Assembly: GCF_003334355.1 (NCBI RefSeq) | Contig: NZ_QOWP01000034.1 | Strand: one strand, 5' to 3' | Length of the DNA stretch: 37,733 nucleotides | From: Escherichia coli | Lineage (GTDB): Bacteria > Pseudomonadota > Gammaproteobacteria > Enterobacterales > Enterobacteriaceae | In this document: positions 20,121-23,100 of the stretch, piece after piece | Position numbering within the stretch: the stretch's first letter is position 1 | Layout: the number at the start of each line of letters is the position of its first letter | Position numbers and translations under genes: made by a program | The notes under the pieces: model-generated | What the model saw: only the letters and a program-made list of their open reading frames with translations | Database searches by the model: none | What the model was told of the DNA's origin: nothing

Positions 20121-23100
20121 TTACGCCTTCTCGATGTTGACTAAGAACGCTTTATATTCCGGCGTTTGCGAGTTTGCATCACCGACATTCGGCGTCAGAG
20201 TGTTAGCGATATAACCTTTACGCGCGACACCCTCAAAGCCCCAGTGGATTGGAATACCCACCGTTTCAACCTGCTGACCGTTTACATTCAGCGGTTTCAG
20301 ACGGCGCGTTACCACAGCCACCGCGCGGATAAAGCCACGCTTGCTTGAGACAGTGACACGATCGCCATTATTAATGCCTTTCGCCGCCGCCAGCGTTTCG
20401 CTGATTTCCACAAACTGTTCCGGCTGAGCAATTGCGTTGAGCAATGCGTGCTTGGTCCAGGTGTGGAAGTGCTCGGTCAGACGATAGGTCGTACCCACAT
20501 ACGGGAACTGCTCTTTTTTACCCATCCGCAGCGCGTCTTGTTCATACAGACGAACAACCGGGTTAGACACCACGTTCGGATGCAGCGGGTTAGTGCCCAG
20601 CGGCGTTTCAATCGGCTCGTAGTGTTCCGGGAACGGACCTTCCGCCATTTTGTTGATGGCAAACAGGCGTCCCATCCCTTCCGGCTGCATGATAAACGGC
20701 CCGGTTGGCGTACCCGGTGCGGCATTGCCGAAGTCAGGAATATCGTTACCCGTCCACTTGCTGCCGTTCCACTGGATCAGCATCCGTTTCGGATCCCACG
20801 GTTTACCGTTGATATCCGCCGATGCACGGTTGTACAGCACGCGACGGTTGAGCGGCCACGCCCAGGCCCATCCCAGCGTATTCCCCAGACCGGACGGGTC
20901 GGAGTTATCGCGGTTAGCCATCTGGTTGCCCTGCTCTGTCCAGCTACCGGTGTAGATCCAGCAAGAAGATGCGGTTGTACCGTCATCACGCAGATGCGCA
21001 AAGTTACTCAGCAACTGACCTTTCTTCGCAATCAGCACGCCATTTGCGTCATAGAGATCTTCCAGCGCATAGCCGTTGTTCTCTTTTGCCACTTCGTCAG
21101 ATTGCGGTTCGTGCGGCTGCTTGTAGTTCCAGCTCATCTTCATCAGCGGTTCTACGCCTTTACCACCTTCGGCCTGGTACAGCTCGCGCAGATGATGGTA
21201 GATACCCGCCAGAATTTCGCCGTCGTTACGCGCTTCGCCCGGCGCGTCCTGACCTTTCCAGTGCCACTGCAACCAGCGACCGGAGTTAGCGATAGAACCA
21301 TCTTCTTCGGCAAAGCAGGTCGAAGGCAGACGGAATACTTCAGTCTGAATAGACGCCGGATCGACATCGTTCGACTCGCCGTGGTTCTGCCAGAAGGTAG
21401 AGGTTTCAGTCACCAGCGGATCGATAACCACCATGTACTTCAGTTTGCTCAGGCAGCTCACCACTTTGTTTTTATCCGGGAAGGACGCAACCGGGTTAAA
21501 GCCCTGGCAGAAATAACCGGTGACTTTGCCTTCGTCCATCATGTTGAAATACTTGATGACGTCGTAGGTCTGGTCCCACTTCGGCAGCCAGTCATAGCCC
21601 CAGTTGTTCTCTTTCTGCGCGGCATCGCCATAGAAAGATTTCATCAGGCTAACGAAGAACTTCGGATAGTTGCTCCAGTAGTTCACCTGATCAGCCAGCG
21701 TCGCTTTAGGCGTGTTCGCTTCCAGATACGACTGCAAATCAACCTGTTTTTCTGACGGCAGCGTCAGATAACCTGGCAGGCTGGTAGAGAGCAGACCTAA
21801 GTCAGTCAGACCCTGAATGTTGGAGTGACCACGCAATGCGTTCACACCGCCACCGGCCATACCCATGTTACCGAGCAGCAACTGGATCATCGCCATAGTA
21901 CGGATGTTCTGCGCACCCACGGTGTGCTGCGTCCAGCCCAGCGCGTACAGGAAGGTGGTTGTGCGATCCGGTGCGCTGGTGGAGGCCAGCACTTCACACA
22001 CTTTCAGGAAGTCGGCTTTTGGCGTACCACAGATGTTTTCAACAACGTCCGGCGTGTAGCGGGAAACGTGCGCTTTCAGCAGGTTCCACACACAGCGCGG
22101 ATGAGTCAGTGTTTCATCGCGTTTCGCATAGCCGTTTTCATCGAACTGATAGTTCCAGGACGATTTATCGTATTGCCGTTTTTCAGCGTCGTAGCCGCTG
22201 AACAGACCGTCTTCGAAAGCAAAATCATCACGCACCAGCAAGCTGGCGTTGGTGTAATGCTTAACGTATTCGGCGTTGATTTTGTTGTTTTCGATCAGGT
22301 AGCGCAAAACGCCAGACAGGAACGTAATGTCCGTACCGGAACGAATAGGTGCGTAAATATCCGCTACAGAAGCGGTACGCGTAAAACGGGGATCGACAAC
22401 GATCAAGGTTGCATCGTTGTTGTTTTTCGCTTCCATCGCCCAGCGGAAACCGACGGGATGCGCTTCAGCAGCGTTACCGCCCATTACCATTACGACGTTA
22501 GCGTTTTTGATATCCACCCAGTGGTTGGTCATCGCACCGCGACCAAATGTTGGAGCAAGACTTGCTACCGTTGGTCCGTGTCAGACGCGCGCCTGGTTGT
22601 CTACCGCCAGCATCCCGAGGGAGCGGGCAAATTTCTGGGTCAGCATCCCGGTTTCGTTGCTGGCACCGGAAGCACACAGCATACCGGTAGAAAGCCAACG
22701 GTTTACCGTTACGCCCTGCTCGTTCTTTTCAATAAAGTTAGCGTCACGGTCAGCTTTCATCAGCTTCGCAATACGGGAGAATGCTTCTTCCCAGCTAATG
22801 CGCTGCCATTTGTCAGAACCTGGTGCACGATATTCCGGGTAGCGCAGACGGTTTTCGCTGTTGACGTAATCCAGCAAACCGGCCCCTTTCGGGCACAGCG
22901 CACCACGGCTTACCGGATGATCCGGATCACCTTCAATGTGATAAATCGCTTCTCTGGCGTTTTTCGCGCCATCACCCAGGCTATACATCAATAGCCCGCA
23001 ACCTACGGAACAGTATGTGCAGGTGTTACGGATCTCTTTAGCGCGTAATAATTTGTAGTTTCGCGCCTGAGCCAGTGCTTGCTTCGGGGCAAAGCCCAAT

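Follow-up and report, generated by a model that had tools for sequence, protein, structure and literature searches.

Genes at the fdn locus

The window, meaning the whole 37,733-nt stretch of Escherichia coli DNA that was analyzed, matched the chromosome of E. coli strain PSS-12 at 99.98% identity (8 mismatches in 37,613 nt). Its minus strand carries fdnG, encoding the formate dehydrogenase-N alpha subunit (20121..23168, minus strand; 1015 codons including Sec196), assigned by NCBIfam TIGR01553 and the PSS-12 annotation. The 3048-nt fdnG stretch agreed at every position with the fdnG annotated in that strain (100% identity), and all 5426 complete E. coli genomes yielded a match covering 80% or more of it. 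The N-terminus of FdnG bears the twin-arginine signal MDVSRRQFFK.

Two further genes of the fdnG operon were assigned on the same strand: fdnH, encoding the iron-sulfur beta subunit (19224..20108, minus strand; TIGR01582, 482 bits), and fdnI, encoding the cytochrome b gamma subunit (18578..19231, minus strand). The latter scored 486.5 bits with the model for the Fdh-N gamma subunit (NF007558), versus 268 bits for the Fdh-O type. The genes around fdnG (yddG, narU-narZYWV, adhP, maeA, and the ddp operon) follow the arrangement of the fdn locus, and the operon partners fdnH and fdnI, together with these neighbors, identify the locus as fdn rather than fdo. A search for the FNR-type box TTGAT-N4-ATCAA, allowing at most one mismatch, gave three matches in the window and none upstream of fdnG, a count that does not exceed chance.

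Continuity of the reading frame through the UGA codon

In the mechanically generated list of open reading frames, the minus strand of fdnG appears as two pieces, a 195-aa ORF (22581..23168) and an 803-aa ORF (20121..22532), the first of which ends at a TGA (22581..22583, minus strand). Around this codon the minus strand reads CAG GCG CGC GTC TGA CAC GGA CCA ACG GTA GCA AGT CTT GCT CCA ACA, and continues with TTT GGT CGC GGT GCG ATG. The sequence-only reading had placed both pieces in the same frame and given a combined length of 1015 codons, and both statements were borne out: the two start positions differ by a whole number of codons (23168 − 22532 = 636 = 212 × 3), and straight translation from 23168 to 20121 yielded 1015 codons (195 + 1 + 819) plus a terminal stop, with codon 196 as the sole internal stop. 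By this translation, and by alignment with residue 196 of PDB entry 1KQF, the TGA is an in-frame UGA at codon 196 that is read as selenocysteine.

The C-terminal ORF piece matched the FdnG equivalog model TIGR01553 at 1316.8 bits (cut-off 814.2) over profile positions 196–1009, and the N-terminal piece matched the same model at 279.5 bits over positions 1–194, so that the two occupy consecutive positions of one family, in agreement with the earlier description of the flanking protein context as conserved. In the solved structure of E. coli Fdh-N (1KQF), chain A runs without a break for 1015 residues, of which number 196 is non-standard. Residues 171–241 of this chain are identical to the fdnG translation on both sides of the TGA, with the UGA aligned to the non-standard residue. 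Because the 1KQF chain is a single one that spans position 196, the FdnG polypeptide is continuous through the UGA. The same codon also aligned with the selenocysteine position of Desulfovibrio FdhA chains.

These data bear directly on the reading of the TGA as a genuine stop, under which fdnG would be a pseudogene or would encode two separate polypeptides of 195 and 803 aa. The mechanical ORF list does show two ORFs, the second running from an ATG at 22532. The single 1015-residue chain of 1KQF for practical purposes disposes of this reading. Against it also stand the fit of the two pieces to consecutive TIGR01553 positions and the in-frame TGA itself, which every one of the 5426 complete E. 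coli genomes carries and which recurs in distant phyla, with conserved protein on either side. High conservation is also seen in the residues that separate the TGA from the ATG, HGPTVASLAPTFGRGA, and RefSeq/PGAP annotates fdnG as one intact 3048-nt CDS without a pseudogene flag. A genuine stop is accordingly considered extremely improbable. The continuity in TIGR01553, the 1KQF chain, and an end-to-end match to an Rfam SECIS model (below) together uphold the earlier call of programmed recoding rather than a pseudogene. The accompanying warning that naive annotation would call the gene disrupted holds for a bare ORF caller, which splits fdnG, but not for RefSeq/PGAP, which keeps the CDS intact.

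A SECIS element immediately 3′ of the UGA

All positions within the element are given relative to the U of the UGA, which is counted as +1. A bacterial SECIS element was assigned at 22528..22586 on the minus strand by a match to Rfam SECIS_3 (RF01989) that covers model positions 1–59 of 59, with a score of 84.3 bits versus a gathering score of 63 (E = 8.4e-19). The 59-nt match begins 3 nt ahead of the UGA and was the sole Rfam match in the whole window at gathering thresholds.

The element consists of an apical hairpin set on a lower helix. The UGA is separated from the apical hairpin by an 11-nt spacer, CACGGACCAAC (22570..22580, minus strand), which doubles as the 5′ arm of the lower helix; the 3′ arm is UUGGUCGCG (22538..22546, minus strand). 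An 11-nt spacing has also been used when bacterial SECIS elements were engineered downstream of a selenocysteine codon (PMC8326192). The 18-nt apical hairpin, GGUAGCAAGUCUUGCUCC (22552..22569, minus strand), is the putative SelB-binding part, and has the layout GG-U-AGCAA-GUC-UUGCU-CC, in which the bulged U (+17) lies at 22567 and the GUC loop at 22561–22559; the first two loop bases, G +23 and U +24, occupy 22561 and 22560. From the fdhF literature, SelB contacts are made by the bulged U and by the G and U of the loop. The constraints described for bacterial SECIS elements comprise a loop of 3–9 nt with a G at its first or second position (PMC13188914).

An inverted-repeat search recovered both parts of this structure, with apical arms AGCAAG/CTTGCT at 22554–22559 and 22561–22566, and outer arms GACCAA/TTGGTC at 22541–22546 and 22571–22576. 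Both pairs of arms lie within the 45 nt 3′ of the UGA, where the sequence-only reading had noticed a palindromic segment. In the register of the Rfam consensus, the lower helix of E. coli contains two mismatches (A8.C48 and A12.G44); ViennaRNA folded it 1 nt off this register, as GACCAA/UUGGUC.

Folding energies were compared with those of shuffled sequences. A 54-nt stretch gave z = −0.38 and a 116-nt stretch gave z = −0.10, and the shorter segments gave z = −2.06 (18-nt apical hairpin) and z = −2.11 (43-nt helix). Since z reaches about −2 at best, and the longer stretches show no such signal, folding energy was not taken as primary evidence. The check proposed earlier, to fold the 45 nt that follow the UGA and to compare them with fdhF and fdoG, came out positive: the hairpin forms and its offsets agree with those of the two other genes. 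Folding energy by itself does not discriminate.

Covariation among homologs from distant phyla

Homologs were collected by scanning species-representative genomes for the pattern QARV-UGA-HG, and gave 76 distinct 62-nt segments in a gapless alignment after chance pattern matches without FdnG context (L007, L042, and L066) had been left out. The set covers Alpha-, Beta-, and Gammaproteobacteria, Acidobacteriota, Actinomycetota, Chloroflexota, relatives of Geobacter, and others. The TGA is kept in all 76 homologs, as the search pattern requires.

When the Rfam structure was laid over the 76 segments, 90% of cells paired. The covariation score was 0.233, versus 0.115 for shuffled alignments (0 of 500 as high), a control that overstates significance, given the relatedness of the homologs and a search pattern in which UGA and CAYGG were preset. 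A second control, in which pairing partners were slid by 1–3 columns, is free of this flaw, and gave covariation of at most 0.097. The signal is strongest in the apical helix, which was 96.8% paired with compensatory changes in 4 of 7 pairs, including 21–33 (A-U, G-C, C-G), 22–32 (G-C, U-G), and 24–30 (A-U, C-G, G-C). Several of these changes fall at wobble positions, and one replaces two residues at once (Ala to Ser and Ala to Gly). The lower helix was weaker across homologs, at 84.6% paired with one compensatory pair.

Single bases of the hairpin were also conserved, with U +17 in 76 of 76 homologs, G +23 in 74 of 76, and U +24 in 76 of 76. Two third codon positions are frozen, +24 (U in all 76) and +15 (G in 73 of 76), while other wobble sites use three to four bases. 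Covariation combined with this pattern of frozen wobble positions is beyond what protein constraint can produce, and the covariance-model match, the covariation, and the frozen wobble positions are each well beyond chance. The locus thus shows that, where a SECIS element lies in coding sequence under strong conservation, the informative tests are covariation and the freezing of wobble positions, and not folding energy.

Two homologs, of Desulfovibrio type and from Mailhella (L030 and L062), break several of the consensus apical pairs, and because of these broken pairs their SECIS probably belongs to another type.

Conservation in Enterobacterales and identity with the fdoG paralog

The formate dehydrogenase-O gene of E. 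coli K-12, fdoG, carries a SECIS_3 (RF01989) element whose 59 nt are identical to those of the fdnG element, and which likewise scored 84.3 bits. Its protein context, ARV-U-HGPTVASLAPTFGRGAMTNHW, and the selenocysteine position, 196, are as in FdnG. The two genes differ in that fdoG is a paralog at another locus, with an identity of 75% overall and 57% at third codon positions. Expression of fdoGHI is aerobic, low, and constitutive, and fdnGHI is induced by nitrate under anaerobiosis. Against this background of divergence, fdnG and fdoG share an identical run of 71 nt that starts at −3 and ends at +65, counted from the UGA, with the runner-up run at 36 nt. When codon columns of the pair were shuffled, an identical run of at least 70 nt arose in 0 of 20,000 trials.

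All 5426 complete E. coli genomes carried the 74-nt stretch around the UGA, typically in two copies each, and its identity was 99% or higher in 5394 of the 5434 E. coli records. In a sample of 26 distinct fdnG and fdoG sequences from Enterobacterales genera, synonymous-codon entropy was about 0.1 bit over codons +1 to +21, versus about 1.1 bits elsewhere. The element was near-invariant in Citrobacter, Enterobacter, Klebsiella, Yersinia, Photorhabdus, and Providencia, and the flanking synonymous sites in these genera were variable.

Two explanations that dispense with selection on a recoding structure were weighed against these observations. One holds that recent gene conversion between fdnG and fdoG, rather than selection on RNA structure, lies behind their identity and the conservation seen within E. 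coli. The 71-nt identical run does resemble a conversion tract, but the stretch is near-invariant across genera while the flanking synonymous sites vary, and among more remote taxa compensatory changes preserve the helix. As a full account of the conservation, gene conversion was given hardly any weight; it may add to the identity between fdnG and fdoG without replacing the SECIS explanation.

The other explanation is that the UGA is read by a standard tRNA (near-cognate Trp or Cys) without SelB or a SECIS, with the hairpin being incidental. The unremarkable folding energy would fit such read-through, as would the strong conservation of the encoded peptide, which constrains most of the nucleotide sequence too. 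It leaves unexplained, first, the wobble positions, of which +24 and +15 are frozen in the homologs and those of pairs 21/33 and 24/30 covary, and the G-C to U-G swap, which entails the double replacement of alanine noted above. The near-zero synonymous entropy over codons +1 to +21 in Enterobacterales, the 84-bit match to an Rfam model that scores structure, and the universal retention of dedicated sel genes in the species (below) argue against it as well, and near-cognate read-through was judged to have a negligible probability.

With these alternatives weighed, the TGA of fdnG is almost certainly the codon for Sec196, accompanied by its own bacterial SECIS element that directs recoding of the UGA, and no observation speaks against this reading.

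Relation to other selenocysteine insertion elements

Within E. coli, the other element available for comparison is that of fdhF (formate dehydrogenase-H), the reference bacterial SECIS, which Rfam places in a separate sister family (SECIS_2, RF01988) from the SECIS_3 of fdnG. The two elements share CACGG.CC after the UGA, an 11-nt spacer (CACGGCCCAUC in fdhF), a bulged U at +17, a loop G and U at +23 and +24, and a lower helix enclosing the UGA-proximal sequence. Their apical stems differ, with GGUUGCA-GGUC-UGCACC in fdhF versus GGUAGCAA-GUC-UUGCUCC in fdnG, and with predicted loops of 4 nt and 3 nt, respectively. The lower helix of fdhF also differs from that of fdnG, and its host protein is the cytoplasmic FdhF of 715 residues, with selenocysteine at position 140.

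At the protein level, the Desulfovibrio FdhA chains (PDB 6SDR, 8CM4, and 1H0H) are homologous periplasmic alpha subunits with an aligned selenocysteine in the motif QAR(V/I)-U-H. The SECIS elements of eukaryotes and archaea have the same function, in that UGA is redefined as selenocysteine by an RNA structure and a dedicated elongation factor, but they lie in the 3′ UTR, are folded differently, and rely on EFSec, joined in eukaryotes by SBP2 (PMC13188914). The fdnG element, in contrast, lies within the coding region just after the UGA, and would be bound directly by SelB (PMC13188914).

Selenocysteine machinery and proposed mechanism of recoding

Recoding by this route depends on the sel genes, whose presence the sequence-only reading had proposed to confirm. 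Among complete E. coli genomes, selAB was found in 5426 of 5426, selD likewise in 5426 of 5426, and selC in 5425 of 5426. Within the window, the gene table contained no sel genes and a tRNA scan returned no tRNA, so the confirmation is species-wide rather than local. From these near-universal counts, it is very likely that selA, selB, selC, and selD are all present in the source genome.

The proposed sequence of events follows established work on fdhF and fdnG, from which SelB binding, delivery, and the role as molybdenum ligand are inferred for the present gene. The mRNA just 3′ of the UGA folds into a stem-loop within the coding region, and SelB, carrying GTP and Sec-tRNA(Sec), would bind the apical hairpin. 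The lower helix would come apart as the ribosome advances, and once the UGA occupies the A site the tethered SelB would hand over its Sec-tRNA(Sec), competing there with release factor 2. Further translation would yield the molybdoenzyme subunit of 1015 residues, in which Sec196 would ligate the molybdenum.

The mechanism of SelB delivery has been described, and the SECIS elements of the three E. coli formate dehydrogenase genes are the best characterized in bacteria (PMC13188914). The reading of UGA as selenocysteine in fdnG is credited to Berg et al. (1991, J Biol Chem 266:22380), as cited in PMC13188914, and the structures of the fdhF and fdnG SECIS elements are mentioned in a bioRxiv preprint (10.64898/2026.03.03.709296). 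Both the selenocysteine codon of fdnG and its SECIS are thus already known, from the Rfam family, PDB 1KQF, the RefSeq annotation, and literature since 1991. The case serves mainly as a positive control, in which programmed recoding was recognized from raw sequence.

Synonymous constraint 3′ of the curated helix

In Enterobacterales, the synonymous freeze runs about 20 nt past the 3′ end of the curated helix (+44 to +65), to codon +21. A second copy of GACCAA lies in this segment (22530–22525), and could pair with the UUGGUC of the lower-helix 3′ arm (22546–22541) after the ribosome melts the 5′ arm. It is conceivable, though unlikely, that selenocysteine insertion in enterobacterial fdnG and fdoG is tuned by a 3′ extension of the element, or by an alternative hairpin, outside the current model. 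The freeze to codon +21 may simply be the product of codon bias (ACC, AAC, and CAC) and paralog conversion. The extended freeze with the second GACCAA is absent from other taxa.

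Low synonymous variation and pairing around the SECIS element

Among 26 distinct Enterobacterales sequences of fdnG and its paralog fdoG, synonymous variation was near zero at codons +16 to +21, counted 3' of the selenocysteine UGA (22518-22537, minus strand), and in these genes the near-zero stretch extended past the curated SECIS helix (Rfam SECIS_3, RF01989) on its 3' side by ~20 nt. In taxa outside Enterobacterales, wobble variation at the same codons was normal. A second GACCAA (22525-22530), located 10 nt downstream of the lower SECIS helix's 3' arm (UUGGUC, 22541-22546), is complementary to that arm as well, so an alternative hairpin would be allowed after melting of the 5' arm; this complementarity may be due to chance. 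The lower helix of E. coli (22538-22580, minus strand) folded in a register 1 nt off the SECIS_3 consensus, and placing it in the consensus register produced A.C and A.G mismatches.

Divergent homologs

Among the homologs found by scanning for the QARV-UGA-HG pattern, the FdhA genes of Desulfovibrio/Mailhella and Eggerthellaceae (L030:4123-4184, L062:756-817, L085:1469-1530 and L111:9706-9767) have the QARV-U-HGPTV context in common with fdnG, and several consensus apical pairs of SECIS_3 are broken in them. The SECIS hairpins in these genes probably belong to a type other than SECIS_3.

Neighboring loci and genome collection

Mapping of the annotation of E. coli strain PSS-12 onto the window placed two plus-strand loci between yddG and narU, the truncated porin pseudogene yddL (about 24533-24820) and a leucine-rich-repeat protein gene (about 24853-26184). 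Outside the window, Rfam naRNA4, a REP-derived nucleoid-associated RNA, had four matches in tandem near fdhF in K-12, downstream of yjcO (L006:25-432). Across the collection of complete E. coli genomes, likewise outside the window, 7 or 8 of the fdnG/fdoG-like matches were carried by plasmid-labelled records, and a match to selC, the tRNA-Sec gene, was absent from a single genome (1/5426).
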